52,887 nucleotides of DNA from assembly GCA_900315995.1 (NCBI GenBank), contig ONBF01000011.1, positions 1-52,887 of the forward strand, read 5' to 3'. Position numbers and translations under genes: made by a program. The DNA comes from an uncultured Eubacteriales bacterium. Lineage in GTDB: Bacteria; Bacillota; Clostridia; Christensenellales; RUG350. The notes under the pieces were generated by a model. It searched no databases. It worked only from the letters and a program-made list of their open reading frames with translations, and was not told where the DNA came from. This document shows positions 1,078 through 42,293 of the stretch, piece by piece; position 1 is the stretch's first letter; each line of letters opens with the position of its first letter.

Positions 1078-1151
1078 TGGAGTATGGTGTAGTGGCAGCA
1101 CATAGGCCTCTGACTCCTATGGTGTAGGTTCGATTCCTACTACTCCTGCCA
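1078..1151 (+). tRNA. tRNA-Gln (anticodon CTG)
   Basis: Cloverleaf: acceptor TGGAGTA/TACTCCT, D arm GTGT-AGTGGCA-GCAC, anticodon loop CTCTGAC, T arm GTAGG-TTCGATT-CCTAC, discriminator G, encoded CCA. Confidence 0.95.
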
Positions 1152-3011: not shown

Positions 3012-3045
3012 AAAAAATCCTCCTGATTGATTTTTGAATTTTAAT

Positions 3046-4017: not shown

Positions 4018-4144
4018 AATGTAATGATTATAACAAAATAATCTTTTAATTACAAATAAATTAAGCGAGATAAACGATATTAATCATAAAATCAAAATTA
4101 TGTATTAAAGAGCATTTTATTATCGGCGCAACGGTTTGTATTTG

Positions 4145-4173
4145 TTGAACAATTCGTTAAACTGTGATAAAAT
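4145..4173 (+). promoter_or_regulatory. sigma-A-type promoter of addBA
   Basis: TTGAAC, 17 bp, TAAAAT with TG extension. Confidence 0.55.
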
Positions 4174-4200
4174 GCAAATAACGTTATTTTTGGGGGAATT

Positions 4201-7200: not shown

Positions 7201-7319
7201 ATTATAAAGAACTGTGCGGCGGTCACGACGTTAAGGTAAGAATACGCAAACAATCGGCAACGCTTATTAACGATAATTTCGTCGGCTGTAATGTGAACAA
7301 GGAGAATAACGATGGCTGA
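4201..7319 (+). pseudogene. addB: ATP-dependent helicase/nuclease subunit B, frameshifted near 6896 (real lesion or assembly error)
   Basis: AddB motifs IVPDKFT, SASRLQTYFRCPYKHF, GKIDRLD...DYKSG in 4201-6954; the C-terminal Fe-S cysteines (CDNCDYKELC) continue in the -1 frame up to 7319; adjacent to addA. Confidence 0.8.
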
Positions 7320-10300
7320 AAGAGAGTGGACGAGCGAACAGTTAAGCGTAATAACATCTCGCGGAAAACTTCTCGTCAACGCGTCGGCGGGAAGCGGTAA
7401 AACGGCGGTTATGGTCGAGCGCGTCGTGAAGACCGTTCTTGACGGCACGGATATAGAGCGTATACTCGTAGTGACGTTTACGGTAGCAGCCGCCCGTGAA
7501 ATGAAAGACAGGATAGCGACAGCGTTATCCGACGCTTGCGCAAACGGCGCGGACGAACGACTTAAAGAACAAATAGACAAGTTACCTCTTGCGGCAATCG
7601 GTACGATAGATTCGTTTTGTTCTCAGGTTGCGAAAAGATATTCGGAGTATGCGGGGGTAGACCCGTCGTTTTCGATAATCGGCGAAGACGAGAAAGACGT
7701 TCTTATTAAAGAGAGTTTCGACGAACTGTTCGATGCGTATTCAAAGCGAACGGACGAAGATTATTACAGAATACTCGACCGATATTCGATTAAGCGAAGC
7801 CAAAAACCGCTTAAAGAGATAATAAGCGGATTTTATGATTTTTTGTGCGTGCTTCCCGACCGTGACGAGTGGATACGAAATAATTCAAAGTATTTGTACG
7901 AGCATACGGACGAAATAAAAGCGCAGGTTTTCGGCGAACTCAAAACGAAGTGCGCCGAACTTCTTTCCGTATGCGTTGAGAATCATTATCTCGAAATAAG
8001 CAGGCAAAAAGCGGTTGCGGAAATAATCGACGCTTTGACGGCTTGCGTTAATGCGAATAGTTTTGAAGAATTGTCGCACATAACAAGCGTTTTGAGATTT
8101 TCACGCCTTAATTTCTCAAAAGATACCGACGCGTTTATGAAAGACGAAATAAAGAATTTCAAAGAACACGTCGGCGATATTCTCATTAAAGATTCCGACT
8201 CTGTATTAAACCGCAGTAACCTTGCTCTTGCAATGACGAAAGAGCGAGCGGAAGACGGAAAAAGAGATATAGACGTTTTAATGAAAATAACTCTCGAATA
8301 TGCCGAAATATTCGAAAATAAAAAACTCAAAAACAATCTTCTCGAATTTTCGGACGTAGCGCGCGCCGCATATCGTGCGCTCGAAAACAAGGAAGTTGCG
8401 TCCGAACTTTCTTCGGAATACGATTACGTATTCGTGGACGAGTATCAGGACGTCAATAAACTTCAAGAGAGCATATTCAAACTGCTTGAACGAAACGGCA
8501 ATCTTTTTATGGTCGGAGATCCCAAGCAAAGTATATACGGATTCAGACACGCCGATCCGACGATATTCACCGATACGATAAAAGACAAGTCGGTCAACAA
8601 TAAGAATATGACCGCGAATTTCAGAACGGACGCAAAAATTCTCGATTTTGTCAACAAACTGTTCGGAAATATTATGACGGAAAAAAGTGCGGGGATAGAT
8701 TATTCGCGCGGTTCGATGATGACGGGACTGGAATATCCGATTGTCAACGACGTTGCACCTGTAACCGTTGTCGACGTACTCGTCGATAAAAGCGTCAAAG
8801 AAGAGAAAATGCTCGGCGTATACAGCGTCAAAGAAGATAAACGTACGGCAAACGAACGGGAACAGGCGTCGGGAATATATGTGGCGCATAAGATAGCGGA
8901 ACTTATAGGCAAACCCGTTTGCACAGGTTTCGACGTCGACAAAAAACCGATTGTAAAACCTATCGGATACGGGGATATTGCCGTACTTGCAAGAAAAGGC
9001 AAACTCGTGTTCGATATACATAAAGTACTGCACTCATACGGTATTCCCACGCACGTAGAGTATAAAGAAGAGGCGTGTATTGCGGAAAACGAACTTAACG
9101 CTATGTTGACAGTCGTTGATAATTCGCGTCGCGATATACCGCTTATACTTGCAATGAAATCTTTCTTTGATTTTACAGATGAAGAACTGTTTGACATCGG
9201 AAACGGAAAGACGTGCGAAAACTTTTTTGAGTGCGTATTAAACGATAAAGAAGTCGTATCCGAAAAGCACGGGAATTTTTTGCGTGCTCTCGGCGAGTAT
9301 AAAAAACTTTCAAAGTATTGCGACGTACACGAACTTGCTTTATATATTATCAACGACAGAGATTTTTTCAATAAAGTTAACGCAAGAGACAGAGAAGAGG
9401 GTATACGGTTCGAGCGGTACGTTGACAAACTGTCGCAAATGAAATCGGCGGAGTCACTGTCATCTTACGTTAAGAAACTTGATAACGTCTTTAAGGACGA
9501 ATCGGACGTAGAGTACGGGAACAAAGAAAAGTCCGTATCGGTTATGACGATACACAAGAGCAAGGGACTTGAATTTCCGATAGTCTTTTTGGTCGGAGCA
9601 AATGAGAAATTTTTGTTCGAAGACGAAAAGAAAGAGACGTTGTTCGATAAACACGCAGGTATTGCGCTCAACAGTTTCGACGACGCCGAACGGATTAAAG
9701 AGACTAATTTTATTCGCAAGTATTATCTCGATAAATCGAAAGACAACGAAAGACGAGAAGAAATGCGCTTATTGTATGTTGCGTTGACGCGTGCGAAATC
9801 ACACTTGTTTACAGTCGCTCAAAAAGACGTTAAGGACGAGAAACCGACTGATGCGTATAAAGCCGATTCTTATATGGGTTATATAGCCGGCGGCGGAGAT
9901 TCCGAAAAAATTTATTACGGCGCGAAATACGAAAAGTTTGATGTCAACTCCGATTCAAACGGCGGTATTGCGAGTAAGCCCGATAAACGCGTCGGACTTT
10001 TTTCGGGGGACAAAGAATCCGTTAAGCGTGCCGCAAGTCTTATAAGCAAAGAATACGTGCACGATGCCGCTACAAGGACAAAATTCAAATATACAGTGTC
10101 GGAAATAAACGAGCTGTTGCACCCGATTGATAGTGCGAACCGTTCTGACAAAGCGGAAGACGACGAATTGGGTTCGCTTTATCATAAAGTGTTTCAGTAT
10201 ATTGATTTTTCGGCGACAACAAGAGAGAAAGTCGAAGCGGAGATTACGCGACTTATCGACGAGAAAGTAATGGATAAAGAACGTGCGGTCTTACTTGACG

Positions 10301-10650
10301 TCGATAAGATAAGTAAAGTGTTAAACACCGATTTGATACGCTATGCGTCGTGTAAACCTATATTGCGCGAGCAAAAATTAATGTTGTCCGTTCCCGCGAA
10401 AGAATTGGGAGTTGGAGATACGGAAGACGAAGTATTGGTGCAGGGTACGATTGATCTTTTGATAACGGGAGAAAAAACCGTGCTGGTCGATTACAAATTG
10501 TCGTCTCGTTCAGCCGACGCATTAAAAGCTACATACGGAACGCAAATGAAAATTTATAAGCGAGCTGCGGAAACCGTTCTCAAAAAGCCCGTTGACGAAG
10601 TTTTTATTATGTCGATTAACAATACTGAGGCAATAAAAATCGTGTTTTAG
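7312..10650 (+). CDS. addA: ATP-dependent helicase/nuclease subunit A (UvrD-like helicase + PD-(D/E)xK nuclease)
   Basis: ASAGSGKT, DEYQD, GDPKQSIYGFR, TIHKSKGLEF, RLLYVALTRA, QGTIDL..DYK..Q..IY. Confidence 0.93.
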   Translation: MAEREWTSEQLSVITSRGKLLVNASAGSGKTAVMVERVVKTVLDGTDIERILVVTFTVAAAREMKDRIATALSDACANGADERLKEQIDKLPLAAIGTIDSFCSQVAKRYSEYAGVDPSFSIIGEDEKDVLIKESFDELFDAYSKRTDEDYYRILDRYSIKRSQKPLKEIISGFYDFLCVLPDRDEWIRNNSKYLYEHTDEIKAQVFGELKTKCAELLSVCVENHYLEISRQKAVAEIIDALTACVNANSFEELSHITSVLRFSRLNFSKDTDAFMKDEIKNFKEHVGDILIKDSDSVLNRSNLALAMTKERAEDGKRDIDVLMKITLEYAEIFENKKLKNNLLEFSDVARAAYRALENKEVASELSSEYDYVFVDEYQDVNKLQESIFKLLERNGNLFMVGDPKQSIYGFRHADPTIFTDTIKDKSVNNKNMTANFRTDAKILDFVNKLFGNIMTEKSAGIDYSRGSMMTGLEYPIVNDVAPVTVVDVLVDKSVKEEKMLGVYSVKEDKRTANEREQASGIYVAHKIAELIGKPVCTGFDVDKKPIVKPIGYGDIAVLARKGKLVFDIHKVLHSYGIPTHVEYKEEACIAENELNAMLTVVDNSRRDIPLILAMKSFFDFTDEELFDIGNGKTCENFFECVLNDKEVVSEKHGNFLRALGEYKKLSKYCDVHELALYIINDRDFFNKVNARDREEGIRFERYVDKLSQMKSAESLSSYVKKLDNVFKDESDVEYGNKEKSVSVMTIHKSKGLEFPIVFLVGANEKFLFEDEKKETLFDKHAGIALNSFDDAERIKETNFIRKYYLDKSKDNERREEMRLLYVALTRAKSHLFTVAQKDVKDEKPTDAYKADSYMGYIAGGGDSEKIYYGAKYEKFDVNSDSNGGIASKPDKRVGLFSGDKESVKRAASLISKEYVHDAATRTKFKYTVSEINELLHPIDSANRSDKAEDDELGSLYHKVFQYIDFSATTREKVEAEITRLIDEKVMDKERAVLLDVDKISKVLNTDLIRYASCKPILREQKLMLSVPAKELGVGDTEDEVLVQGTIDLLITGEKTVLVDYKLSSRSADALKATYGTQMKIYKRAAETVLKKPVDEVFIMSINNTEAIKIVF

Positions 10651-10692
10651 TGCTTTTACTGAATTGTGTTTTGTAAAAACATATAAACATCA

Positions 10693-10721
10693 TTGCTTTT
10701 TGATTTAATTTTTGATATAAT
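10693..10721 (+). promoter_or_regulatory. sigma-A-type promoter about 370 bp upstream of glmS
   Basis: TTGCTT, 17 bp, TATAAT with TGn extension. Confidence 0.6.
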
Positions 10722-11090
10722 CTATACGAAATTAAATCGGGAGGAAATCGGCGATTATTATAACGACGATCGGAGTAGACAAATCGGCAAACGCTTATTT
10801 CTTTGAAATACGTTTATTGTTTGTATTTTCGGTTTTGTTGATTTTGAACGCGTTGTACGATGGGACAAATGCGGATAAAAGATTCAAAAACAACTCGGCA
10901 CAAGTTATGTTCAGTAAAATGAATACGTCTTTTATCGCATTAAAGAAGGAACGTTCGGACGACGAATTGCGTAAACTTTTTAACGCAATCAAAATAAATA
11001 TGAATTGTTTGTTATGGATAATTAATCTACGAAAGCTGTTGCTCGTTGATGACGACAGCTTTTATTTGTAAAATAATCGGAGGGGCGTAT

Positions 11091-12878
11091 ATGTGTGGAA
11101 TTGTTGGTTGTACCGGTAAGAAAAATTGTGTTCCCGTTCTTATGGACGGTCTTAAAAAACTTGAATACAGAGGATACGATTCGGTGGGGATTGCCGTTAT
11201 CGATTCAACGAACGATTTGCAAATAATCAAGAAACAAGGCAGAGTCGCTACGCTCGAAAAATATATAGAGGGCGTAAGCGGTAAGTGCGGGATAGGTCAT
11301 ACGCGTTGGGCGACGCACGGTAAACCGTCGGATAAAAATTCGCATCCGCACGCATGCGGCAATTTTGCGGTCGTTCACAACGGCATTATCGAAAACTTTC
11401 TCGAATTAAAACTCGAACTTTTGAGCCAAGGAGAGATTTTCAATTCCGATACGGATACCGAAATTATCGCTCACCTTATAAAACTGAACTACAAGGGCAG
11501 TTTTATCGAAGCGGTGAGAGATACGGTAAAGATGCTCGCAGGCTCTTACGCGCTTGCTGTAATCAGTAATAAGTATCCCGATGTCATTATCGTTGCAAAG
11601 AAAGACAATCCTCTTATAATAGGCAAGGGTAACGGCGTGAACTATATAGCGAGTGACGCTCCCGCGCTTGCCAAGTATACGAAAGACGTTTACGTTATGT
11701 CCGACGGCGACCTTGCAATGCTTACGCCTGCCGAAATCAAATTTTACGACGAAAACCTTAACGAAACGGAGAAAAAATTCAAGAAACTCGATATGGTTGA
11801 AAGTTCTTTGGAACTCGGAAATTATGAGAGTTTTATGATGAAAGAGATACACGAAATTCCGACTGCGATTGAAAATACGCTTGAAAGTCTTGACGGCAAC
11901 GTTTATCCGCCCGAGTTTATCGAAAAAATGCTTAATGCGCCCGCCGTAACGGTCGTTGCTTGCGGTACGGCGTATCACGCGGGACTTTGCGGACAATATT
12001 TGCTTGAAAAATTTAACAGACTGACAGTCAATATTGCTGTTGCCAGCGAATATCGATACAGAAATCCGATAATCAAAGACGGAGAAGTGATAATAGCCGT
12101 TTCGCAAAGCGGTGAGACTGCGGATACGATAGCCGCTGTTAAACTTGCGAAAGAACGCGGAGCATATGTGTGTTCGATTACCAACGTTGCGCAGTCAAGT
12201 ATCACTACGTACAGCGATTGCGTAATACATACTAAGGCGGGTCCCGAAATAGCCGTAGCCGCAACGAAAAGTTACAACTGTCAGCTTATAGCGTTCTATT
12301 ATATGTCGATGTTGCTGTTGAAAGCCCAAGGCAAAGACGTTAAGACGTTTGACAAAACGTTGAGAAGTTTGCCGTCTCTTGCGGAATCGGTTATAGATAA
12401 AGCAAAGAATATTCGTGAGTTTGCAGGCAAATTTTCACACGTTCAGGATATGTTTTTCTTAGGACGAAATCTCGACTATGCGGTTGCTCTCGAAGGTTCG
12501 CTTAAATTAAAAGAAATAAGTTATATTCACAGTGAGGGTTGTCCTGCGGGAGAGCTTAAACACGGCACACTTGCGCTTATCGAAAAGAATACGTTGGTAA
12601 TAGTCATAATCACGCGTCGTGAACTTGCCGAGAAAACAATGAACGGTATTCACGAAGTTAAGGCACGCGGAGCGACGGTTCTTGCGGTTACGCCGTTTGA
12701 AGACGTTGCAACGTCGGACGGTATCGATGAAGCGATACTTATTCCCGAGACGGATAATGATTTCGAGCCTGTATTGTCGGTTATACCGCTTCAAATATTC
12801 GCGTACTACATAGCGCGTGCGCGCGGCAACGATCCCGATAAGCCGAGAAATCTTGCAAAGTCGGTTACGGTAGAATAA
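11091..12878 (+). CDS. glmS: glutamine--fructose-6-phosphate transaminase
   Basis: MCGIVG N-terminus after GGAGGGG RBS, LEYRGYDS, GHTRWATHG, SQSGETADT, PRNLAKSVTVE C-terminus. Confidence 0.98.
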   Translation: MCGIVGCTGKKNCVPVLMDGLKKLEYRGYDSVGIAVIDSTNDLQIIKKQGRVATLEKYIEGVSGKCGIGHTRWATHGKPSDKNSHPHACGNFAVVHNGIIENFLELKLELLSQGEIFNSDTDTEIIAHLIKLNYKGSFIEAVRDTVKMLAGSYALAVISNKYPDVIIVAKKDNPLIIGKGNGVNYIASDAPALAKYTKDVYVMSDGDLAMLTPAEIKFYDENLNETEKKFKKLDMVESSLELGNYESFMMKEIHEIPTAIENTLESLDGNVYPPEFIEKMLNAPAVTVVACGTAYHAGLCGQYLLEKFNRLTVNIAVASEYRYRNPIIKDGEVIIAVSQSGETADTIAAVKLAKERGAYVCSITNVAQSSITTYSDCVIHTKAGPEIAVAATKSYNCQLIAFYYMSMLLLKAQGKDVKTFDKTLRSLPSLAESVIDKAKNIREFAGKFSHVQDMFFLGRNLDYAVALEGSLKLKEISYIHSEGCPAGELKHGTLALIEKNTLVIVIITRRELAEKTMNGIHEVKARGATVLAVTPFEDVATSDGIDEAILIPETDNDFEPVLSVIPLQIFAYYIARARGNDPDKPRNLAKSVTVE

Positions 12879-12890
12879 CGTTGTCAGAAG

Positions 12891-12914
12891 TTGCGGGATA
12901 ATCCCCGCAATTTT
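12891..12914. terminator. hairpin terminator between convergent genes
   Basis: TTGCGGG-ataatc-CCCGCAA then TTTT. Confidence 0.65.
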
Positions 12915-12915
12915 A

Positions 12916-13800
12916 TTAACTTAATCTTGCAAGGTCGTTACACAAGTCGTGATAATCATAGATTATCGCCGTATATGCATAGCGCACGGGGGACGACAGA
13001 TATACATAATCGGTTTTGCCTATTTCTTCGAGCCGTTTAACGATAAGCAACATTGCCGAACCGATTTTACCGACGGCAAGGTGAGCGCAGTTTGCGGTAG
13101 CGTAATCAAACGTATTTTTTTTATCGTTGACGTAGGATATAAGGTTTTTTATTTCGTTCATTGCATCGGTTTCGCTTAATCGGCTGTCATCGAGTTTATT
13201 GCTTATATCGAATAAGACGTCGTACACTTCGTCAAACGTATTCAGTCCCGTTTCGCATTTTTTTTGCATCGAATTACTCAAAAATTCCGAATAAAGCGGT
13301 TTTATTTCGATAGCCGTAATCGTAGCCGCCATATTGTTTTTTATCATACGATCGACTACTTGTATTGCGCGATCGCTGTCCTTGTAGACTGCTGCGATAA
13401 CGCTGTAATTTTCGTTACACCGTACATATCCCGCGGCGGCGCGCGCCGAGACGTCTTCGGAATAGGCGTCCGCTGTTTTTTTATCGCTGAAATAACCTAT
13501 TCTTACGGCGTAATATATTTTTGTCTCGACGGACGCCGTTTTCGGTTCGAAAACGGCGAGAATAAAGCCCGAAGTAAAATAATCCGCGCACAAAACGGTG
13601 GAGAAAAAGCATATCATAATAAGAAGAAGCGCAATCGCGCCGCGTTTGTTTCTTTTGTAAACGCGGGACTGCTTTTTGCGCGATTTTACGGAAATTTTCT
13701 CGAAATCCGTACTTGATTCGACAGTTTTATTCGCATTTTCAAGTTCGGATTCTCTGTAATTTTTATAAAAATACGGAGAATAAGGATTATTTTTACTCAT
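12916..13800 (-). CDS. membrane-anchored SPOR-like domain protein, probably sporulation-related
   Basis: Basic N-terminus, one TM helix, SPOR-like motif YYAVRIGYFSDKKTA, helical C-terminus; sigmaE-like CATATCTT just before ATG. Confidence 0.55.
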   Translation of the reverse strand: MSKNNPYSPYFYKNYRESELENANKTVESSTDFEKISVKSRKKQSRVYKRNKRGAIALLLIMICFFSTVLCADYFTSGFILAVFEPKTASVETKIYYAVRIGYFSDKKTADAYSEDVSARAAAGYVRCNENYSVIAAVYKDSDRAIQVVDRMIKNNMAATITAIEIKPLYSEFLSNSMQKKCETGLNTFDEVYDVLFDISNKLDDSRLSETDAMNEIKNLISYVNDKKNTFDYATANCAHLAVGKIGSAMLLIVKRLEEIGKTDYVYLSSPVRYAYTAIIYDYHDLCNDLARLS

Positions 13801-16300: not shown

Positions 16301-17728
16301 ATGGCACACACTAAAGAATGGCGTTCAAGTATGAAAATACGCTTCGATTACAACAATATGATGCAAGCGTATATCGGAGAACACGGAATTACCGACGAAG
16401 AAATTTTCGCGAAAAGCAAACTTGCTAAAAACGCTTTGAATTTCTACAAGACCAACCGCGGCACAGGTATGATGTGTTGGAGTGAACTTCCGTACAATCA
16501 GACGGAAATCGTTAAGGAATTAAACGAAACGGCACGTTATATTTGCAAGAAATTCAAAAACTTCGTCGTACTCGGAATAGGCGGTTCCGCGCTCGGTCCG
16601 ATAGCGGTATTCCAAGCTCTCAATCATTTGAGAAACAACGAGCTTCCGAGAAAGGTTCGTAAAGTCCCGAAACTTTATGTGGAAGATAATGTAGACCCCG
16701 AGCGTATGGCTTCGCTACTAGACGTAATCGATGTTGAAGAAACGATGTTCAACGTTATTACAAAGAGCGGTTCAACGAGTGAAACAATGAGTCAATTCCT
16801 TATTATTTCGGATATATTGAAAAAGAAGCTCGGCGATAGGGCAAAAGAGCATATTATAGCGACTACTTCGGAAAACAAGGGTAATCTTATTAAGATAGCA
16901 CAGCGTGAAGGTTATAAAACGTTCTATATTCCGGACGGCGTAGGCGGAAGATTTTCGGAACTTTGCCCCGTTGGACTTCTGACGGCTGCCGTAATGGGTG
17001 TGAATATTTCGGAAATGCTCAAAGGCGCCGCCGATATGGATAAAGCGTGCTTGAACAAAAACGTATCCGAGAACCCTGCGCTTGCAGCTGCGGTACTTCA
17101 ATATATCGCTATCGAAAAGGGTAACAACATTTCGGTTATGATGCCGTATGCCGATGGACTTAAATACATTGCCGACTGGTATTGTCAACTTTGGGGCGAG
17201 AGTCTCGGAAAGAGAATCGATCTTGACGGTAAAGAAGTTTTTGCGGGGCAAACTCCGGTTAAGGCACTCGGCGTCACCGACCAACACAGTCAAATTCAAT
17301 TATATACCGAAGGTCCGTTTGATAAAGTCATAACTTTTCTCGGCGTAGACAAATACAGAGCGGAAGTCAAAATACCCGACGGATACAAAGATATTCCCGC
17401 AGTATCGTTCCTTTGCGGACATACGCTTAACGAACTTATAACCGCAGAACGTATGGCTACGGAATATGCGTTGATGCGCGCGGGACGTTTGAACCAAACC
17501 ATTATGCTTCCCGAACTCAATGAATATACACTCGGACAGCTCCTTATGTTCTTTGAGATACAGACGGCTTTCGTAGGCGCGATGTTTAATATCGATTCGT
17601 TCAATCAACCCGGCGTTGAAGAGGGCAAGAACGCAACATACGCATTGCTCGGCAAAGAAGGGTTTGAAGACAAAAAGAAAGAACTTGCGTCAGCACCTAA
17701 GAAGGACGCAAAATATATTATTCAATAA
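16301..17728 (+). CDS. pgi: glucose-6-phosphate isomerase
   Basis: GIGGSALG, TKSGSTSET, GGRFS, QLWGESLGK, DQHSQ, FNQPGVEEGK. Confidence 0.97.
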   Translation: MAHTKEWRSSMKIRFDYNNMMQAYIGEHGITDEEIFAKSKLAKNALNFYKTNRGTGMMCWSELPYNQTEIVKELNETARYICKKFKNFVVLGIGGSALGPIAVFQALNHLRNNELPRKVRKVPKLYVEDNVDPERMASLLDVIDVEETMFNVITKSGSTSETMSQFLIISDILKKKLGDRAKEHIIATTSENKGNLIKIAQREGYKTFYIPDGVGGRFSELCPVGLLTAAVMGVNISEMLKGAADMDKACLNKNVSENPALAAAVLQYIAIEKGNNISVMMPYADGLKYIADWYCQLWGESLGKRIDLDGKEVFAGQTPVKALGVTDQHSQIQLYTEGPFDKVITFLGVDKYRAEVKIPDGYKDIPAVSFLCGHTLNELITAERMATEYALMRAGRLNQTIMLPELNEYTLGQLLMFFEIQTAFVGAMFNIDSFNQPGVEEGKNATYALLGKEGFEDKKKELASAPKKDAKYIIQ

Positions 17729-17755: not shown

Positions 17756-17791
17756 AAGGCGTTTCACTAAGATGTGAGACGCTTTTATTTT
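17756..17791 (+). terminator. intrinsic terminator after pgi
   Basis: AAGGCGTTTCAC-taagat-GTGAGACGCTTT followed by a T-run. Confidence 0.75.
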
Positions 17792-17886: not shown

Positions 17887-18684
17887 ATGAGAGTAGTTAT
17901 AGGAATAGACGGCAATGTGATTTTGACGGAGCAAGGCGCGATTTTCAGTAGAAGTAATGCGGTGAACAGACTTGAATTATACAGTCCGTACAGTCCGCTC
18001 GATGCGGTGATACTTAGTTTTAAGAGGCAGGATCACGTCGAACCGATGAGTAGGTATATGGCATATACGGGTATACAACAATATAACGGGAGCAATTATT
18101 ACGTATATGTTCACGATTTTTCGGCGTATCAACTTGCATCTGTCGGAACACTCGAAATGAATTGCAAAATAGTTATGTACGGCGGTGAAACGGTATTATC
18201 TACGGGTACGTTTTACGCAACGGTCGAAGACGGCGGAACTACAAATATCGAACTTCTTGCGGACGAGCAAAGTGAACTCCTTGCGCTTACGCAGGCGATA
18301 GAAAGCAGAGCCGTTTTACAACCGCTTGCAACACCGAATAATTTTGCGTCGATTGACAGTAGCGGACAGTTTGTGGACAGCGGTATAGCGGTATCGAGTT
18401 TAAGTTCGATATTAAACGGCAAAACGTATAGATTCAGCGTAACGATTCCGGTATCGTCGTGGAACTTGCAGACAAAACAAGCGACCGTTAACGTTCAAGG
18501 CATAAATTCAGATTGGACTTTGAGTTTTGCGCCTACACCGTCGAGTAAAACTGATTTTATCAATGCGGGAGGAGTGTACGGTGTGTCGATAGGAAGTAAT
18601 AGTATAACTTTCGAGTGCGTATCGATACCGACTTCCGAAATTGAAATGATTTGCGTCGGGGGTGAATACGATGCCTTGTCTTAA
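17887..18684 (+). CDS. phage tail-tip-like protein (BppU-like N-terminal domain, tail-fibre linker, C-terminal beta domain)
   Basis: BppU-like pattern (SFKRQD...LASVGTLEMNCKI...LSTGTFYATVE), fibre motif NNFASIDSSGQFVDSG, C-terminal VTIPVSSW...SITFECVSIPT; recognised by eye. Confidence 0.6.
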   Translation: MRVVIGIDGNVILTEQGAIFSRSNAVNRLELYSPYSPLDAVILSFKRQDHVEPMSRYMAYTGIQQYNGSNYYVYVHDFSAYQLASVGTLEMNCKIVMYGGETVLSTGTFYATVEDGGTTNIELLADEQSELLALTQAIESRAVLQPLATPNNFASIDSSGQFVDSGIAVSSLSSILNGKTYRFSVTIPVSSWNLQTKQATVNVQGINSDWTLSFAPTPSSKTDFINAGGVYGVSIGSNSITFECVSIPTSEIEMICVGGEYDALS

Positions 18685-19876
18685 CAATTATTTGCAGTTT
18701 ATCAAGCGGACGGTTACGATAACGCCTGCCGATTGGGACGCGGAGACCAAACTTGCCGCGGTTCAAGCCGATTGGGCAGTAGCGGGGATGAGCGCGACGT
18801 TTGCTCCGGTCGAGAGTTCAATGAACGTATTTACGGATATAGCGGTGCAAGGGGTGTATTGTACAAATATACTCAACGGAGATTTATTGTTTAAGTCGGG
18901 TAGCGGTGCAATAGTCAACGAGAATATAACTCTTAACGTGACGGCTTACAATGACGGTAAGGGAATTATCGTCAATGCGGAGATTGTCGGCGAAGGTATA
19001 AACGGTATGAGTATAACGGATAATTCGTTTGATTTTACGACTTCCGATAACGGAAGCACGATAACGAACATTAAATCCGTTTTTAAGTTAGTAATTCCGC
19101 CTTATGACGACCACGGCAATGAAATTACGGCGATACAACAAAGCAATAATAATTCGGTTGTCGGAGAATTGTATTTAATCAATAATATTAAAACGGTAGG
19201 AAACAGCGCATTTTATAATTCGAGTAATTTGAAAAAAGTGTATATCGGGAAGCAGTTAACGCTTATAGGCGCGGCGAGCGGAGGTTCGATACGTTCTTTC
19301 GGAAATTGTCCGAATTTATCCGAAGTCGTTTTCGAGCGCGAACGTACGGAGTTATTGGTGATAAGAAACTTCGATTCTAATGATGCAAACGCGTTGTTCT
19401 ATAACTCCGCAATAGAGAATCTTGTTATCCCCGAGAACGTCCAACTGATAGAAAAACCGTTCGCAAATTGTACGAAATTAAAAGCAGTCAGATATGAGAG
19501 TTCTTATGGTCTCGGTTATCCTTTCAGAAACTGTACTGCGCTTGAAGAATTAACCTTTACGCAAGCAACACCCGTAACAGTAGGAACACCTGCGCAAACG
19601 TTCAATTCGGCGCACTATATATTTGTGCCGTATGACAGTTTTACGGCTTATACGACCGCTACTAATTGGACAAGTTATGCAAGTTATATGTACGGTATCG
19701 GCAAATTTACGGCGGGTACTACATTGCCGACCAAAACAACGGACGATGGCTTTGATTTGACGTGGTATGCGACGAAAGCCGACTTAAAGGCAAGCAACAA
19801 CCCGATAACTGTTGCGCCGAGTGAGTTTGACAACGAATACGGCGAAATATATTGCGCTAAGGCTGTCGCCGAATAA
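18671..19876 (+). CDS. BspA-type leucine-rich repeat protein with phage-fibre-like N-terminal domain
   Basis: LRR units IKTVGNSAFYNSSNLKKVYI, FGNCPNLSEVVF, FANCTKLKAV, FRNCTALEELTF; cap IFVPYDSFTAYTTATNWTSYA; N-terminus resembles the C-terminus of the upstream gene; no signal peptide. Confidence 0.75.
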   Translation: MPCLNNYLQFIKRTVTITPADWDAETKLAAVQADWAVAGMSATFAPVESSMNVFTDIAVQGVYCTNILNGDLLFKSGSGAIVNENITLNVTAYNDGKGIIVNAEIVGEGINGMSITDNSFDFTTSDNGSTITNIKSVFKLVIPPYDDHGNEITAIQQSNNNSVVGELYLINNIKTVGNSAFYNSSNLKKVYIGKQLTLIGAASGGSIRSFGNCPNLSEVVFERERTELLVIRNFDSNDANALFYNSAIENLVIPENVQLIEKPFANCTKLKAVRYESSYGLGYPFRNCTALEELTFTQATPVTVGTPAQTFNSAHYIFVPYDSFTAYTTATNWTSYASYMYGIGKFTAGTTLPTKTTDDGFDLTWYATKADLKASNNPITVAPSEFDNEYGEIYCAKAVAE

Positions 19877-19885
19877 GGAGAGAAT

Positions 19886-20335
19886 ATGAAATATTTATTG
19901 AAAGAAAAAAGGGGCTATATTACAGAGCGTCCCGAATATGTTGACGTAAACGAAAATATAGTCGTCGAATTTGAGTTTGAAGACGGAAAACCGCCTGTTA
20001 TCGACAGCGGACTTTACGCCGTTCTTTTGAGAAGCGACGGTAAAGAGTTTACATATAAGATAGACGATAAACTCAAAGTATCGCTTAATAATAAAGAGAT
20101 TAACAAAGGATTGTTTTCGTTGACTGTCGTTCTCGTTATAGGTAATGAAATAAATAAGTCATGGAGATGCGAGCCGTTTTCGATAGAAAGTCTTACGGAT
20201 ATTATCGGCAACGTTCGCGAAGTCAACGAAAGTATGGAAGTGTTAAACGAGATAAAAACGCTTAATGAAGAAATTAAATTATTAAAAGACCGCGTGGAAC
20301 TGCTCGAAAACGAGTATGATCCGCGCAACATATAG
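19886..20335 (+). CDS. hypothetical protein (beta domain + C-terminal coiled coil), phage-like
   Basis: AAGGAG RBS; heptad tail LNEIKTLNEEIKLLKDRVELLE. Confidence 0.65.
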   Translation: MKYLLKEKRGYITERPEYVDVNENIVVEFEFEDGKPPVIDSGLYAVLLRSDGKEFTYKIDDKLKVSLNNKEINKGLFSLTVVLVIGNEINKSWRCEPFSIESLTDIIGNVREVNESMEVLNEIKTLNEEIKLLKDRVELLENEYDPRNI

Positions 20336-20343
20336 GAGGAATT

Positions 20344-20838
20344 ATGGATTTTAACGGTATTTGGAACTCAATCGAGCCTTATGTGATAGGCGCATTGACC
20401 GCGTTTATAAGCGGCGGTATGATATTTATTCTCGTAAAGCAAATTCTGAGTGGCTGGCTCAACAGAAATAATATCGATACGCTTGCCGAGCGTTTTGCAA
20501 ACAGCGTTGTCGGCGAAAAAATTTACGTTGATATACGAGCGTTATCCGACAAACGCGTTAAAGAACTCAACGAACAAATTAAGAATACTATCGAAGTTAC
20601 GTTAAAAAGAAATCTTAACGTTATCAATAATATCACTGCGATAGTTGCTGATGTGGGAGAAGTATTTATCAACAGTAAGACAGTGACTCCCGCACAACGC
20701 GCGAGACTTAAAGAAGATGTTGAAGCCGTAAGAAACGCAAGCGGTTGCGATTCGGTAAAGAGCGAAGATTGCTTAGTGGTTAATTTGGCACTTAACGGCA
20801 ATGAAGATAAAGAAAGACGACTTATTAATTTCGATTGA
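20344..20838 (+). CDS. hypothetical single-pass membrane protein with helical C-terminus (holin-like candidate)
   Basis: AGGAGG RBS; N-terminal TM YVIGALTAFISGGMIFILV. Confidence 0.65.
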   Translation: MDFNGIWNSIEPYVIGALTAFISGGMIFILVKQILSGWLNRNNIDTLAERFANSVVGEKIYVDIRALSDKRVKELNEQIKNTIEVTLKRNLNVINNITAIVADVGEVFINSKTVTPAQRARLKEDVEAVRNASGCDSVKSEDCLVVNLALNGNEDKERRLINFD

Positions 20839-20847
20839 AGGTGACGT

Positions 20848-21336
20848 ATGAAGTATTCAAAAAGAAAGCTTACGTTTTTTATATTCGAAGTGTTGTTTTC
20901 GGTAGTAATTCCAATATTGATAGGCATATTGTCGTGTATGGATAAAGGGCTTAAAGTAAGAATAGGCGCATACGGCATAACGCTTGCGATAATTTTATTT
21001 TACGTCATCAAAAAGTTGTTTATCAATAAACGGGTCGAAAACCTTAAAGGATTTACAGTACATCTTAAAAGCGAACTTGCGATAGAAACGGACGCCGTGA
21101 AGATTAACAATATAAGGCGCGCGCTTGCAAAGGCGCAAGTCTTTGAAGTTATTGCTACGGCAATCACTCCGATAGGCTTGTTAAGCGTATTTTTGTTGGT
21201 ATCTAAGAGCATAGAAGCGGGCATAGCGCACCTTTCGGGAGCTGTGGGACTTATTCTTTTATCAGTGATAATCGGGACGGTATTCGCAGTGCTTAACGCG
21301 TCGGTAATACGATGCGGAAACGGAGACGCGCAATGA
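20848..21336 (+). CDS. hypothetical 4-TM membrane protein
   Basis: Two hydrophobic hairpins separated by a charged helix; AAGGTGA RBS. Confidence 0.7.
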   Translation: MKYSKRKLTFFIFEVLFSVVIPILIGILSCMDKGLKVRIGAYGITLAIILFYVIKKLFINKRVENLKGFTVHLKSELAIETDAVKINNIRRALAKAQVFEVIATAITPIGLLSVFLLVSKSIEAGIAHLSGAVGLILLSVIIGTVFAVLNASVIRCGNGDAQ

Positions 21337-22136
21337 AGTATGCATTAAAGACTGTTGCTCTTACATCGATTTTTTTACTTGTAGTATTCATAAATATACT
21401 GAGCGACTACATAAGTTTTTCGTTCTCGACAGCGATATTTACAGACGCTGCTTATTGGCTGAACGTAGCTATACTTAATACGGGACTTATTATAGTCATA
21501 ATGATATGCAGGTCGTATGCAAAGGATAAAGAGATTGGTAGCAACAAAGAGTATGCGGATACGCAGAAAGAAATCGACGGCGCATACGTCGAGTTCAATA
21601 AACGCAAATTGTATACCGAGTTCAATAAGTATATAGGTGAAATCAATTTTAATAATAAGCTTGAAAGATACGAGATTAAACTTAATAGGAAATTAATTAA
21701 AGCCAAAAAAGAAGAGCGCAAAAACGAGCTTAAAGAATTAATAAAACGTGCGAGCGACGACGTTAAATATGTTCGCGTAAGATACAGGAAGTTACGAATT
21801 GCGAGTATTTTTTCGAGAACGGATATGAACGTTAAAGACGAATATGACATAGACGAACACGAAATGCGTGCAATTTCAAAACTTATGCTTAACAGGGTGC
21901 TTGCGATACTTGCGTTCAGTCTCGTATTTACAAGCGTATTGATGTCTGCGCGCGAGTTTGACATAGTGATGTTGTATTCCACGATGCTTAAATTGTTTCA
22001 GGTAGCGACGTCGATTTACGTCGGATTATCGGCGGGTTACAATTATGTTGCGGGTGAAATTTTACCTAAAACAAAACTTAAATTGCAGATTATAGAGAAG
22101 TTTCTCGAAAGCCGTTCGAATAACGACAATCTGTAA
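21333..22136 (+). CDS. hypothetical membrane protein (2 TM, Lys-rich coiled coil, 2 TM)
   Basis: ATGA overlap with the upstream gene; hydrophobicity pattern. Confidence 0.7.
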   Translation: MKYALKTVALTSIFLLVVFINILSDYISFSFSTAIFTDAAYWLNVAILNTGLIIVIMICRSYAKDKEIGSNKEYADTQKEIDGAYVEFNKRKLYTEFNKYIGEINFNNKLERYEIKLNRKLIKAKKEERKNELKELIKRASDDVKYVRVRYRKLRIASIFSRTDMNVKDEYDIDEHEMRAISKLMLNRVLAILAFSLVFTSVLMSAREFDIVMLYSTMLKLFQVATSIYVGLSAGYNYVAGEILPKTKLKLQIIEKFLESRSNNDNL

Positions 22137-22143: not shown

Positions 22144-22172
22144 TTGCAAAAATAATTAAAGCGTGTTATAAT
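22144..22172 (+). promoter_or_regulatory. sigma-A-type promoter of the NYN gene
   Basis: TTGCAA, 17 bp, TATAAT with TGn extension. Confidence 0.7.
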
Positions 22173-22199: not shown

Positions 22200-22973
22200 A
22201 TGACCGGCGATAAAAAGATTGCACTTTTAATCGACGCGGAAAACGTGTCGGCTAAATACATCGGATATATTTGCAAAGAGCTTACAAAGTACGGAGTTGT
22301 GACGTATAAGCGTATTTACGGCGACTGGACGGGAAAAGGTGCGGACGGGTGGAAAAAGGTTTTGCTTGAACACTCGATAACGCCTATTCAACAGTACAGT
22401 TATACGGTGGGGAAAAATTCGTCCGACAGTGCTATGATAATAGACGCAATGGATATTTTGTATTCTCAAAGCGTCGATGCGTTTTGTATCGTATCGAGCG
22501 ACAGTGATTTTACGCGTCTTGCGGTAAGGCTCAGAGAAAACGGTAACACCGTTATCGGTATGGGTGAAAAGAAAACCCCGCAGGCATTTATTACGGCGTG
22601 CGAAAAATTCATATATCTCGAAATGCTTGCGCCTACGCAAAGCGTTAAGAAGACGCCGAAACGTTCGACTGTTGAAAAAACGGTAAATGATAATAAAGAA
22701 AACGTCTCGATTGAATCCGATATGACTATAATAATCGACGCGCTGAAAGATATTATCGAAGATTTAAGCGATGATATGGGCTGGGCGTATCTTGCGGACG
22801 TATTCAACGTGCTCGGCAAGCGGTTCCCCGATTTCGATTCGAGGTTATACGGTTACAAGAAAGCGTCGGAGTTTATTCGATCGCTTGAAGAATTCGAAAC
22901 GGAAGCGCGCTCGACTAAGGGAACGGGTAACCCCGACAGAATTTTCGTAAAAATTACGGGCAAAAAGAAATAA
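22200..22973 (+). CDS. NYN (PIN-like) domain protein with C-terminal OST-HTH/LOTUS domain
   Basis: IALLIDAENV, KRIYGDW, GKNSSDSAMIIDAMD, SSDSDF; C-terminal GWAYL...PDFDSRLYGYKK. Confidence 0.92.
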   Translation: MTGDKKIALLIDAENVSAKYIGYICKELTKYGVVTYKRIYGDWTGKGADGWKKVLLEHSITPIQQYSYTVGKNSSDSAMIIDAMDILYSQSVDAFCIVSSDSDFTRLAVRLRENGNTVIGMGEKKTPQAFITACEKFIYLEMLAPTQSVKKTPKRSTVEKTVNDNKENVSIESDMTIIIDALKDIIEDLSDDMGWAYLADVFNVLGKRFPDFDSRLYGYKKASEFIRSLEEFETEARSTKGTGNPDRIFVKITGKKK

Positions 22974-28621: not shown

Positions 28622-30304
28622 TTAATTAAAATTAATACAGTAATCTTTCATAACCATTACGATATTTATCGAGTGATCGGCTATACGCTCCAAGTTGCTT
28701 GTGAGAGCTATAAAGTGAGAACCTGCGGTTGCGGAACACTCACCCGTGCTCATACGTTTGATATGCGAATTTTTGAGTTGTTCGGTAAGCTCGTCGATTT
28801 TATCTTCGCGGAGTTTCAAGTCGCTGAGAGCTGCGATTGAAATTTCTTTGAAAGCGGATATTGCGACTTCGAGTTGCTCAAACGTTGCATTGAAAAGTGC
28901 TTTGATTTCCGCCGTTGCATTATCGCTGAAACCGATATTTTCTTTTTGCGCGGTTTCCGCGTACTCAATAATATTTTCGGCATAGTCGCCTATACGTTCG
29001 ACGTCAGTTACGGTATGGAAGTATGTGCCGATAACTTTACTTTCGTACGTCGGAAGACTCAACGCCGTAATTTCCACGAGATATTTTGCGATTTCACGGT
29101 TTAAGAAATTGATGTTCTTTTCACGAATATCGAATTCTTGTTTTTTATCCGTATTCTTGTTAAGTACGGCGTTTACGGCAAAACTTAAATTTTTTTGAGC
29201 AAGTCGCGCCATATTTTCGATTTCTTTTCTTACGTCCGTCATAATAACGCTTGCGTTTGGTTTGAGTTTCGGGTCGATATATACGTATTCGGTAAGCAAT
29301 TCCGAGGTTGTGACGCGTTTATCTTTAATAAGTTTCGTAAGTAACTTTTCCACTTGCTTTGCAAGAAGTATGAGTGTCGCGCCCGTAATGAGATTAAAGA
29401 ATATGTGAAACAGTGATATTTGTAAAGACTCATTATCAGGTGCGATTGCTTGTAAGAGTTTATAGCAGTTCGGGAAAGTAAACAGTATAATTCCGAAAAG
29501 TATAAGTCCGAACACATTGAAAAGCACATGTACGTACGCGGCGCGACGAGCGTTGGTTCTTGCGCCCAACGATATGACAACGGCGGTAACCGATGTACCC
29601 ATATTTGCGCCGAGTACTATAAGCATTGCGTTGTACAATGGAAGAACGCCGGATTCGATAAGCGGTATAAGTATTGCAATCGTTGCCGTCGAACTTTGTA
29701 CGAGTGCGGTAACGAGAATACCTATAAGTATCAAAAGAAAAGGATTTGATATAGTCGAAAAAGCGTTCTTAACGGACGGAATTTCGAGAAGCGGACTCAT
29801 AAATTCGTTCATAAAGAACAGTCCCGCAAATATCAAACCGAAGCCCGTAATAACGCCGCCTATTTCTTTCGTTACTCTTTTTTTCGACAAGAGAGTGATA
29901 AACATCCCGATAAGCGCGCACGCTGCGAGAATAGGGGATATGAGAGATACGCCTTGAAGGGATACGAGAAGCGCGGTTATCGTTGTTCCGAAATTTGCGC
30001 CTATTATAATGTTGGTTGCTTGATAGAGAGTGAGAAGTCCCGTATTGACAAGACCGACTGTCATAGCTGTCGTTGCGGACGAACTTTGAAGAATTGCGGT
30101 AACGCCTGCGCCGAGTCCAAACCCCGCAAAGCGATTGTTACCCACTTTATCGAGAGTACGGCGCAGTCGTGAGCCGAACGCCGTTTCGAGATGTTGACTC
30201 ATAAGGCGTAACCCCAAAAGAAGAACAGCCATACCTGCAAGCATGGCTAAAACGTCTGAAATAATATCGATTGTCGGCGGTAAATCCGCGGATATTAAAT
30301 ACAT
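28622..30304 (-). CDS. Na/Pi cotransporter family protein with C-terminal PhoU domains
   Basis: Two QSS(S/T)A repeats with GANxGT, and ERIGDYAENI / ERIADHSINI PhoU motifs; TGATG overlap with the upstream paralogue. Confidence 0.92.
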   Translation of the reverse strand: MYLISADLPPTIDIISDVLAMLAGMAVLLLGLRLMSQHLETAFGSRLRRTLDKVGNNRFAGFGLGAGVTAILQSSSATTAMTVGLVNTGLLTLYQATNIIIGANFGTTITALLVSLQGVSLISPILAACALIGMFITLLSKKRVTKEIGGVITGFGLIFAGLFFMNEFMSPLLEIPSVKNAFSTISNPFLLILIGILVTALVQSSTATIAILIPLIESGVLPLYNAMLIVLGANMGTSVTAVVISLGARTNARRAAYVHVLFNVFGLILFGIILFTFPNCYKLLQAIAPDNESLQISLFHIFFNLITGATLILLAKQVEKLLTKLIKDKRVTTSELLTEYVYIDPKLKPNASVIMTDVRKEIENMARLAQKNLSFAVNAVLNKNTDKKQEFDIREKNINFLNREIAKYLVEITALSLPTYESKVIGTYFHTVTDVERIGDYAENIIEYAETAQKENIGFSDNATAEIKALFNATFEQLEVAISAFKEISIAALSDLKLREDKIDELTEQLKNSHIKRMSTGECSATAGSHFIALTSNLERIADHSINIVMVMKDYCINFN

Positions 30305-31970
30305 CAGCAGTAGTCCTTTAAGGTGATTGCGATATTTTCGATATGGTCTGCTATACGTTCGAGATTGCTGATTAACGATAAAAATCTCGAACTCGATGAC
30401 GCGGAGCAAAGCCCTTTGTTCATACGTTCGATGTGTTTATGCTGTAACGCTTCTTGGAGAGTATCGATTTCTTCTTCGTTGATTTTAATTGTACCGAAAT
30501 CTTTAAGCGTTTCGTTCTCGAACGCATTTAATACCAAATCGAATTGAGCGTCGATCAGTTTTTGCATATCTTTGATTTCGTTGTTTGCCGTGTCGCTGAA
30601 ACTCGACTTATCGGCGATTGCTTCTTCGGTATACTCGATAATATTTTCGGCATAATCGCCTATACGTTCTATATCGGTAATTACGTGGTACAGCGAACCT
30701 ATGATTTTTTCGTCTCTGAAACTTATTTCCGCCGAACTTATTTCAACGAGAAACTTAGTAAGCTCACGGTTTAAGAAATTGATATTCTTTTCGCGCGTAA
30801 CGAAATCGGGTTTAATCGAAACGTCACTTGTTATGACGGCGTCGATGCTTATATCTAAATTCGTTTTTGCAAGGCGCGCCATATTCAATACTTCTTTACG
30901 AAGTTGCGGCATTGCAAAAGTCGGCGCCGACATAAGACGCGTATCGAGATAAACGAAACCTTTAAGAACAGCTTCCTGTTTATCGGATTCCGTATCTTTG
31001 ATAAGTTTGTTGAACAATTTGACGATATGCTTAGTGAACCCGATAAGAAGAAAAGCGGTTACGATGTTGAATACCGAGTGGAATATAGCGATTTGAAACT
31101 CGACTTTTTCGAAAACGTCGAGCAGATTCAAAACGTTCGGGAATATAAACAAAATTAACATAAAGAATATAACGCCGACGAGTTTTGCGAACAAATGTAT
31201 CGCAGCCGCGCGCTTTGCATTGGCGTTTGCGCCTATTGCCGCAAGTATTACGGTCATACACGTTCCGACGTTTGCGCCCAATACTACGAAAACGGCGTTT
31301 TCAAGCGGCATTATTCCGCTGCCTGCAAGCACTATAACTATGGAAATCGACGCGGAAGAACTTTGTATAGCCGCAGTGAAAACAATACCTACGAGTATCA
31401 AAAGCAACGGATGCTGAATACTTGCGAAGAAATCGAGTATGGCGGGAAGTTGCTTAATGTAGGTAAGTGCTTCGGAAGCGACTGTTAAACCGCAGAAAAT
31501 GAGACCAAAACCCATTACGATTCCGCCGATATTTACCAATATGTGCTTTTTACAAAACATCATCATGAAAGCACCTACGCAAGCGACGGAAGCAAGAGCG
31601 ACGGGAACTATTTTCAATGCACTCAAAGACGCATACCGATATTCGCGCCGAGAATTATCGTCGTTGCCTGAAAGAGCGTCATAATACCCGCGTTGAGAAG
31701 ACCGATAACCATAACGGTCGTTGCCGCAGAGCTTTGAATTACGGCTGTAACTGCCGCGCCGATGCCGAGACCTGCGAAACGGTTATCGCCTATTCTGTCA
31801 AGAAGCACGTTCATTTTACCGCCGGCTGCGGATTCGAGATTGTCGCTCATCAGTTTCATACCGAGCAAAAGTATACCGATACTCGCTACGATGAGTAAAA
31901 CGTATTTTATCGTATTGACTGTGTTTACGGCTATTACGATGTCGTTTGCCAAAAGAGCGGTATTCGGCAT
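30304..31970 (-). pseudogene. second Na/Pi cotransporter (PhoU domains), frameshifted near 31635
   Basis: N-part 31623-31970 (QSSAATT...GANIG) and C-part 30304-31626 are in different frames; the TT.TA.. segment is missing compared with the paralogue. Confidence 0.8.
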
Positions 31971-42219: not shown

Positions 42220-42293
42220 ATAAATAGTATTGAATAACATATTTTCGATTTAATGCATATTCAAAACTTAATTATAAAAGGACGATTTTTACA

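Follow-up and report, generated by a model that had tools for sequence, protein, structure and literature searches.

The window analysed here is the whole of contig ONBF01000011.1 (52,887 nucleotides) from an uncultured Christensenellales bacterium, and it carries a block of six genes, g1 to g6 (positions 17887-22136), located between pgi and a gene with NYN and OST-HTH domains. The evidence from its genes makes a solid case that this block is what remains of the distal part of a phage late operon and that selection has maintained it. By analogy with operon II of the gene transfer agent (GTA) of Faecalibacterium prausnitzii (FpGTA), it may further be a domesticated locus for the fibres and the release of a particle, a reading which we hold tentatively, as nearly but not quite probable. 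An unlinked cluster on another contig (C57) of the same genome encodes the terminase, portal, capsid and tail hub of a putative particle, and we infer a functional link between the block and that cluster. The window forms the entire contig C36 of its own genome (G000), a 1.3-Mb assembly in 73 contigs which is about 97% complete.

In the ORF list of the window, all six open reading frames (ORFs) of the block are on the + strand, intact and free of internal stops. The first gene, g1 (17887-18684; 265 amino acids, aa), encodes a three-module fibre protein, g2 (18671-19876; 401 aa) a BspA-type leucine-rich repeat (LRR) protein which is a probable receptor-binding protein (RBP), and g3 (19886-20335; 149 aa) a BppU_N-like beta-sandwich with a coiled-coil helix and a conserved YDPRNI end. 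The remaining three encode membrane proteins: g4 (20344-20838; 164 aa) has one N-terminal transmembrane (TM) helix and a long helical tail, g5 (20848-21336; 162 aa) has 2+2 TM helices and a basic 35-residue linker, and in g6 (21333-22136; 267 aa) a charged helical linker of about 115 residues separates two TM helices from another hydrophobic stretch. From g1 to g6, the successive junctions are an overlap of 14 bases, three gaps (9, 8 and 9 bases) and an overlap of 4 bases (ATGA), and clear ribosome sites were observed for g1 and g2. The start of g2 was taken as the first ATG behind the GGGGGTGA ribosome site (the listed GTG ORF begins at 18662), and the start of g6 was placed to give 267 aa, as in the database cluster at 99% identity (a longer ORF begins at 21312).

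The upstream boundary of the block is a terminator-like hairpin (17756-17785, + strand; a 12-pair stem and then a T run) behind pgi (16301-17728), and the downstream boundary is a promoter-like site of the NYN gene (22144-22172, + strand; TTGCAA, 17 bases and TGtTATAAT, an extended -10). The NYN and OST-HTH/LOTUS gene itself (22200-22973, + strand; Pfam NYN 3.6e-37 and OST-HTH 1e-13) is a conserved neighbour outside the block. Over the whole region, such sites were not enriched relative to shuffled sequences, with 13 promoter-like sites against 14.9 +/- 4.1 and 7 terminator-like sites against 6.3 +/- 2.5. An earlier note on this DNA, made from the letters, had described six co-oriented, tightly spaced and intact genes between the pgi terminator and the NYN promoter, and these coordinates and spacings confirm that description.

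The flanks of the block consist of housekeeping genes, with addB, addA, glmS, glmM and pgi on one side and an AMP-binding ligase gene and leuS on the other (leuS was named from its translation alone, with no family scan). The block has a GC content of 40.8% compared with 41.3% for the genome, and its tetranucleotide distance to the genome falls at the 25th percentile among genome windows of the same size, so that the composition is indeed not foreign, as the earlier note had judged by inspection. That note had also seen no integrase, capsid, terminase or att repeat. We likewise found no integrase, capsid, terminase, head or tail-tube genes near the block, and no att-like direct repeat flanking it (short imperfect pairs only). 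The sole tRNA gene of the window (1078-1151) is not near the block. An active prophage, intact or recently integrated, was rejected on the lack of integrase, att, head and tail-tube genes nearby together with the native composition.

Sequence comparison showed all six genes to be intact, syntenic and under purifying selection across a deep divergence. A metagenome contig (L014) carries the 3' end of pgi, g1 to g6, the NYN gene and a convergent ligase gene in the same order, all of them intact. Its protein identities to the window are 86, 79 and 65% for pgi, NYN and the ligase, and 64.5, 48, 44, 46, 54 and 55% for g1 to g6 respectively, and the synonymous change (dS) between the two is saturated. 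When the window was compared with a closer contig (L013), the ratio of nonsynonymous to synonymous change (dN/dS) was found to be 0.065-0.105 for g1, with 0.03-0.05 for its anchor domain and 0.14-0.18 for its C-domain, and the first 230 residues of g2 were observed to be the fastest-evolving part at 0.21-0.36. This apparent combination of a conserved dock with variable tips is the gradient shown by receptor-binding modules.

The presence of the block at the same site in L014, the saturated dS and the low dN/dS point to vertical inheritance under purifying selection. The word domesticated, which the earlier note had used, is therefore supported by six intact genes in the same place at saturated dS, by low dN/dS and by native composition. 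The possibility, set out beforehand, that the block would be strain-specific or decaying in relatives was not borne out, as the block of L014 is intact at 44-64% identity. The synteny between pgi and NYN, which was also to be examined, gave a divided answer: it is kept in L014, but in five relatives of the family, all five of which have NYN, pgi was not found to adjoin NYN on the five loci searched, and therefore an empty site cannot be defined. No g1, g2, g3, g5 or g6 was found by tblastn on these five family NYN loci. A weak g4 match on locus L011 (E 5e-4) lies on the opposite strand of another gene and was taken as chance.

Among sequencing runs, 19 DNA runs contain at least half of the sampled words; their labels, where given, are goat, bovine or gut metagenome, and the holders span 12 studies when the single RNA holder is counted. 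Contigs of three independent DNA runs (goat, bovine and gut) bridge pgi-g1-g2 and g2-NYN. One bovine-gut metatranscriptome run yielded three small contigs at identities of at least 99%, which cover pgi, g1 (18267-18469) and the g5/g6 junction (21328-21541) and for which carry-over of DNA is possible.

When the six proteins were compared with the family libraries Pfam, PHROGs, PADLOC and NCBIfam, g2 alone was recognised. The g1 protein comprises a BppU_N-like anchor (residues 1-115), a helical linker (about residues 124-175) with a NFASIDSSGQFVDSG fibre motif and a C-terminal beta domain (residues 180-260). A HMMER pass over 1.84 billion representatives returned 91 proteins at E <= 1e-3, in which residues 1-130 match the N-termini of proteins of 99-952 aa (mostly 350-950 aa), residues 133-175 match a motif that is repeated in giant proteins and residues 180-255 match the C-termini of many proteins. 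These matches fall on separate sets of proteins for each segment, and therefore g1 can be regarded as an assembly of three modules. Members of both aligned sets of g1 matches (19 and 48 rows) also match PHROG tail-fibre families. Six relatives of g1, at 99-60% identity, were found among 5.8 billion proteins, and no match was found among 50,697 phage records. In the viral contigs of IMG/VR, one stretch encodes a g1 relative; this stretch may be a record of this genome, or of a near one, that was filed as viral.

By predicted structure, g1 and g3 both share the fold of the N-terminal anchor by which BppU attaches to phage baseplates. The AlphaFold2 models have mean predicted confidence (pLDDT) values of 84.7 for g1 and 77 for g3. 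In a Foldseek search of the PDB, the top six matches of g1 are TP901-1 baseplate chains (4v96, best E 1.9e-5), followed by the NF5 (9m8o) and 80alpha (6v8i) baseplates, and the N-domain of BppU (ORF48; 3uh8) occurs at rank 47 with a TM-score of 0.50 normalised to the target. Against the viral models of BFVD, g1 has 154 matches at E <= 1e-3, which are led by BppU N-terminal domain and tail fibre proteins, the best being a BppU N-terminal domain protein at 1.8e-13. The first match of g1 in the ESM Atlas (0.94) is a cluster in which 99% of the members have BppU_N. The g3 model consists of a beta-sandwich and a long helix, and in a search of 48,161 chains its top four matches were 9m8o_P (Z 9.2), 3uh8_A (Z 9.0; root-mean-square deviation 2.6 over 97 residues), 6v8i_BN (Z 8.8) and 4v96_AA (Z 8.5), whereas generic Ig/FN3 folds reach Z <= 7.8, about one Z unit below the baseplate chains. 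Both models thus combine the BppU N-terminal fold with a helical stalk. The earlier descriptions of g1 as BppU- or fibre-like and of g3 as beta plus coiled-coil agree with these models and their matches, and the phage-structural folds that were to be looked for among the six proteins were found in these two.

The earlier naming of g2 as a BspA-LRR protein is supported by its match to Pfam LRR_5 (PF13306) at 1.3e-12, with 48.2 bits against a gathering cut-off of 27.7. In addition, g2 matches phrog_18805 at 2.9e-15, and it matches six phage records, via the LRR part only. Residues 182-243 of g1 align with residues 15-78 of g2 (E 1e-4), which indicates that the C-domain of g1 recurs at the N-terminus of g2. 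We consider g2 to be, probably, the receptor-binding protein of the set. No TM segment or signal peptide was found in g1, g2 or g3 by hydropathy. Within the C-terminal part of g2 (19717-19755), strains of other runs have paired one-base deletions and insertions 3-6 bases apart, so that the frame shifts briefly and is restored within the likely receptor-binding tip.

For the membrane proteins, hydropathy gave one TM helix in g4 (residues 12-36), 2+2 TM helices in g5 and, in g6, two TM helices, a charged linker (residues 64-179) and a hydrophobic stretch (residues 180-207), where the fourth TM was read by eye. These results agree with the 1, 4 and 2+2 TM segments that had been predicted earlier. 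The only family match of g4 is a weak one to ZorA2 of PADLOC (5.1e-4), and g5 has weak matches to 4TM effectors only (Pfam S_4TM 0.08 and PADLOC 0.017). No family match of g6 was found in Pfam, PHROGs, PADLOC or NCBIfam; its nearest Pfam-named cluster in the ESM Atlas is SIEA at 0.75, a score level that is often reached by chance. The g6 profile found eight proteins in the collection of 5.8 billion, all of which are close relatives or the copy in a related genome (G001), and no g6 relative was found in IMG/VR. Distant members of g6 are probably missed by word-based and pattern-based searches. Alignment of the g5 and g6 profiles (hhalign) gave no relation between the two.

Relatives of g3 to g6 were observed in structural operons of phage-like elements in related bacteria and, as judged from gene order, g3 to g6 is a distal late-operon module of these elements that stands where a lysis cassette is expected. 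The g5 and g6 profiles found relatives in two genomes, G044 and G001, and, through a scan of GTDB, in a third, G061 (this contig scan, made with g6, matched only G044 and one further genome). Relatives of g4 are found in L014, G044 (26% identity) and G001, those of g5 in L014, G044 (34%), G061 (locus L058; 32%) and G001, and those of g6 in G044 (30%), G061 (29%) and, as a distant one, in G001. In addition, G001 and G044 have distant relatives of g3, with 24% identity in the alignment and BLAST E-values of 0.001 and 5e-4.

On G044:C17 (L046/L056) and G001:C95 (L047/L055), the relatives of g3, g4, g5 and g6 come in that order after large fibre or tail genes at the operon end. The structural operon of G061 (L058) has relatives of g5 and g6 only; other genes separate them from the fibre genes and they adjoin an XRE repressor module. 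In G044 and G061, this XRE module, on the other strand, comes next after the membrane genes. The operons of G044 and G001 open with the elements' own TerL and/or portal; both contain a portal and that of G001 also TerL (phrog_2, phrog_533), and the large tail proteins of these elements have 968-1223 aa. Neither their head genes nor their tail genes for proteins of 316, 172 and 1223 aa had a homologue in G000. Neither an endolysin nor a known holin was recognised in the read stretches of the three operons. The likeness to the distal tail-to-lysis end of a phage, which the earlier note had drawn from the gene order of the block, is therefore substantiated by the way in which relatives of g3 to g6 end structural operons in G001 and G044.

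A hallmark search of G000 gave no match to TerL_ATPase, HK97 capsid, Sipho_tail, the PF04860 portal or a tape measure, and one match to Terminase_6N, on contig C57. An intact set of regulator, TerL, portal, capsid and tail-hub genes is located there at about 2510-13015 (L016, L018). The order of the cluster is a sigma-like regulator, a divergent secreted-protein gene, TerL, two small ORFs, the portal, a 190-aa protein, the major head protein (phrog_14242), proteins of 113 and 183 aa, a 493-aa virion protein and, as the last gene, a 308-aa charged helical protein which is not RBP-like. It is flanked by an M23 peptidase gene on one side, and dCMP deaminase, GroES/EL and nrdD come directly after it on the other. 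In the cluster we recognised neither fibre nor endolysin genes, and a PHROG scan of its ORFs gave no integrase or replication gene. As a chromosomal head and packaging operon with no recognised replication, integration or lysogeny genes, the cluster resembles the head locus of a two-locus GTA-like element.

The genome-wide search for unlinked capsid and tail genes, which the earlier note had proposed, thus led to this cluster, and its presence makes the idea of a split particle plausible. The tailocin variant of that idea is without support, with no tape-measure or Sipho_tail match. A tailocin was rejected since PF10145 and PF05709 are unmatched in the 97% complete genome, the sheath and tube families not having been searched. 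The major head protein of C57 was found in 26 of 61 relatives, among them all five of the family, and the gene unit was syntenic in all nine loci examined, with the copy of genome G002 in the same GroES/EL context. A phmmer search of PDB sequences with the 493-aa, 308-aa and major head proteins gave nothing below E 0.3. A complex prediction for residues 1-130 of g1 with the 493-aa and 183-aa proteins scored 0.00 against a mark of 0.32, which is evidence neither way.

Three further features of the C57 region were noticed. A near-palindrome, CAAACGTATGTTTG (L016, 2420-2445), occurs upstream of the C57 regulator only, with a promoter-like TTGACA/TATAAT pair just downstream; by eye it resembles the LexA box of Firmicutes with one changed position per half-site. 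GroEL is present as two ORFs (C57 14059-14769 and 14829-15602; 236 and 257 aa) which match profile positions 3-230 and 290-536; for this essential chaperonin, the split may reflect either a real interruption of the gene or a fault of the assembly. In a genome of another family (L031; G027:C1:195000-210000), an orthologue of the NYN protein (51% identity) is encoded next to dCMP deaminase and GroES/EL, with the head-cluster regulator about 9 kb away, so that NYN, GroES/EL and the head cluster are neighbours there, whereas in G000 the neighbour of NYN is the block.

In our preferred reading, the distal end of the late operon of a temperate phage would have become established in the chromosome of a Christensenellales-like genus of the ruminant gut and would then have been kept by selection. 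The products of g1, g2 and g3 would be the fibre and receptor-binding set of the C57 particle and those of g4 to g6 its membrane (release) set, and the particle may be podovirus-like and GTA-like, with its terminase, portal, capsid and tail-hub genes on C57. The link to C57 is suggested because the C57 cluster has no recognised gene for a fibre or for lysis, because the dock of g1 is very conserved in a genome where no other phage structure was recognised, and because FpGTA provides a precedent. A weak further argument is that all three other genomes with g5 or g6 relatives (G001, G044 and G061) carry a head protein of the C57 type, on another contig.

Several observations weigh against this reading. 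Nothing was found that directly ties the block to the C57 cluster, and inspection by eye gave nothing convincing as a promoter or LexA-type box shared by the regions upstream of g1 and TerL. The block occurs much less widely than the head cluster, since g1 was found in one of the 61 genomes searched, namely the window's own, and the g6 profile was convincing in three (three further matches were weak, E 0.003-0.009), compared with 26 of 61 for the head protein. As an example, G002 has the head cluster but no g1, g5 or g6 match. The co-occurrence in three of three genomes carries little weight against a background of 25 of 60, and these genomes are, moreover, related to one another. The phages of G001 and G044 that include the module have their own TerL and/or portal and are unrelated to the C57 cluster, and therefore the module does not need the C57 particle. 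Comparison of the g1 family with the fibre N-termini of G001 and G044 was not significant (hhalign, probability 0.8%, E 0.073). Furthermore, Pfam BppU_N (PF10651) matches neither g1 nor g3 at E <= 1 and none of the 19 aligned members of the g1 N-domain set (g1 included) at E <= 1e-3; no match was obtained with either of the aligned sets of g1 hits (19 and 48 rows). No holin family of Pfam, PHROGs or NCBIfam matches g4, g5 or g6 and no endolysin gene is present in or beside the block, so that the holin-type role which the earlier note had suggested for these proteins found no support from family matches.

A broader form of the preferred reading holds that a podovirus-like GTA is widespread in Christensenellales-type gut Clostridia and has the block as its fibre, RBP and release locus, with g4-g5-g6 as a hitherto undescribed, endolysin-independent membrane module, for release or for the passage of DNA, that real phages of these bacteria likewise use instead of holin and endolysin. 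We regard this form as doubtful.

A domesticated prophage remnant might also serve as stand-alone protection against phages, with g4 to g6 as superinfection-exclusion or abortive effectors, g1 to g3 masking or competing for the receptor, and no tie to C57. The range of the block, which is much narrower than that of the head cluster, would suit such a role, and in G061 the g5-g6 pair stands apart from the fibre genes and beside an XRE repressor, which is the usual place of prophage exclusion genes; G044 has the same XRE neighbour. In G001 and G044, however, the g3 to g6 relatives run in the same direction as the structural genes and form an unbroken row with them, and not with the repressor. 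The weak likenesses of the membrane proteins to effectors (the 4TM family of PADLOC, S_4TM, ZorA2 and SIEA) point in the same direction as the repressor, but every one of these matches is below the curated thresholds. Protection would also leave unexplained the dN/dS of 0.03-0.05 in the docking domain of g1, and the retention of three signal-less tip proteins in a single tight operon with the membrane genes at 64% and at 85% g1 identity. We consider protection against phages to be rather unlikely.

It is quite unlikely that the block encodes a fibre or adhesin of the cell surface, in which g1 to g3 would be exported without signals through holin-like pores of g4 to g6 and displayed in the manner of phage-fibre-like adhesins. 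Proteins g1 to g3 do lack a signal peptide or TM segment and are encoded alongside three membrane proteins, and g2 matches the BspA-type LRR_5 family, where BspA-type LRR domains are typical of surface adhesins. Against this, the relatives of g3 to g6 belong to phage structural operons with TerL and/or portal, and the Pfam scan matched neither a cell-wall anchor nor SLH, LPXTG or the like. The BppU_N fold serves for docking on baseplates, and we know of nothing that docks a BppU_N-type domain to a cell.

A functionless relic of a deleted prophage in which decay has not yet begun would account for the lack of integrase, att site, head and tail-tube genes nearby and for the homologous modules that sit in phage-like operons elsewhere, but it is very improbable given six of six ORFs intact in two lineages with saturated synonymous divergence, a g1 dN/dS of 0.07-0.10, a fully ameliorated composition and the same position in strains of three independent runs.

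Elsewhere in the window, positions 42000-47000 form an island of low GC content (0.33-0.39) with unannotated genes, and the gene at 44916-45986 encodes an ABC-type ATPase with a PADLOC mad3 match of 1.3e-30, so that this may be a defence island. A full gene for a Na/Pi cotransporter-PhoU protein was observed at 28622-30409, and a 115-aa fragment with the same Pfam domain occurs at 31623-31970, on the same strand and 1.2 kb away.

If the block is indeed the fibre and release locus of the C57 particle, g1, g2 and g3 would set the recipient cells of its DNA and g4 to g6 the exit of the particle. Among the GTA-like elements of gut Firmicutes, only FpGTA has both loci defined, and the head clusters of many uncultured Clostridia have no recognised fibre or lysis genes. 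The block is a concrete candidate for the missing half of such head clusters. Apart from the link to C57, g4 to g6 form a conserved three-gene membrane module which ends phage late operons without a recognisable endolysin, and they offer a lead to an unknown mechanism of lysis or exclusion in Gram-positive anaerobes.

The block can be compared with several known systems. In the siphophage TP901-1, the BppU domain docks on the Dit ring of the baseplate. The BppU protein (ORF48) of TP901-1 shares with g1 a three-part plan of beta-sandwich anchor, helical linker and C-domain, whereas g3 has the anchor and helix only. The TP901-1 BppU, 80alpha and NF5 proteins (4v96, 3uh8, 6v8i and 9m8o) are the best structural matches of g1 and g3, but the identity to such baseplate proteins is only 10-17% and Pfam BppU_N is unmatched. 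Moreover, TP901-1 has Dit, whereas no match to the Sipho_tail (Dit) family was found in G000. The elements of G044:C17, G001:C95 and G061 have true homologues of g4 to g6 and distant relatives of g3 (of g5 and g6 only in G061), in the same order behind fibre genes; they have large tail proteins and a TerL and/or portal of their own, whereas G000 keeps the tip and membrane genes only.

The GTA of Rhodobacter capsulatus (RcGTA) has fibre, head spike and holin/endolysin loci apart from its head-tail cluster, and these are vertically inherited. RcGTA is siphovirus-like and proteobacterial, and its regulation and lysis genes have been shown experimentally. Split loci and vertical inheritance are features which the block would share with it, as a likeness of general layout.

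The head operon I of FpGTA (Borodovich et al., Nat Commun 2026; PMC12946183), located among chromosomal genes, spans 10.5 kb and has about ten genes, which encode TerL, portal, scaffold, capsid and short-tail proteins. Its operon II, of 5.5 kb and 125 kb away from operon I, encodes baseplate, tail fibre, RBP, holin and endolysin; proteomics linked this operon to the particles, and in 7 of 12 strains it could not be detected (PMC12946183). The paper describes GTA-like packaging in metagenome-assembled genomes of Christensenellaceae as well (PMC12946183). In gut Firmicutes, GTA-like packaging of DNA was described as common in 2026. Operon II is like the block in being a short operon with fibre and RBP genes, unlinked from the head operon and variable in presence. 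It differs in its recognised holin and endolysin, where the block has three unclassified membrane proteins and no lysin, and in its link to capsids by particle proteomics, where the block is known from its genes and the likeness is one of gene layout. Measured against such a second locus, the block has the fibre and RBP part, and its membrane genes hold the lysis-cassette position of related phages with no holin or endolysin match.

The earlier note had singled the block out as a candidate for an undescribed system. As a kind, a two-locus particle had by then a counterpart in FpGTA operons I and II, published in 2026 (PMC12946183), and domesticated particles of phage origin whose fibre and lysis genes form a separate locus are already known from RcGTA, as well as from FpGTA (PMC12946183). 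What would be new here is the occurrence in another lineage, the use of BppU-fold anchors by a short-tailed particle and a module of three unclassified membrane proteins that stands in for holin and endolysin.

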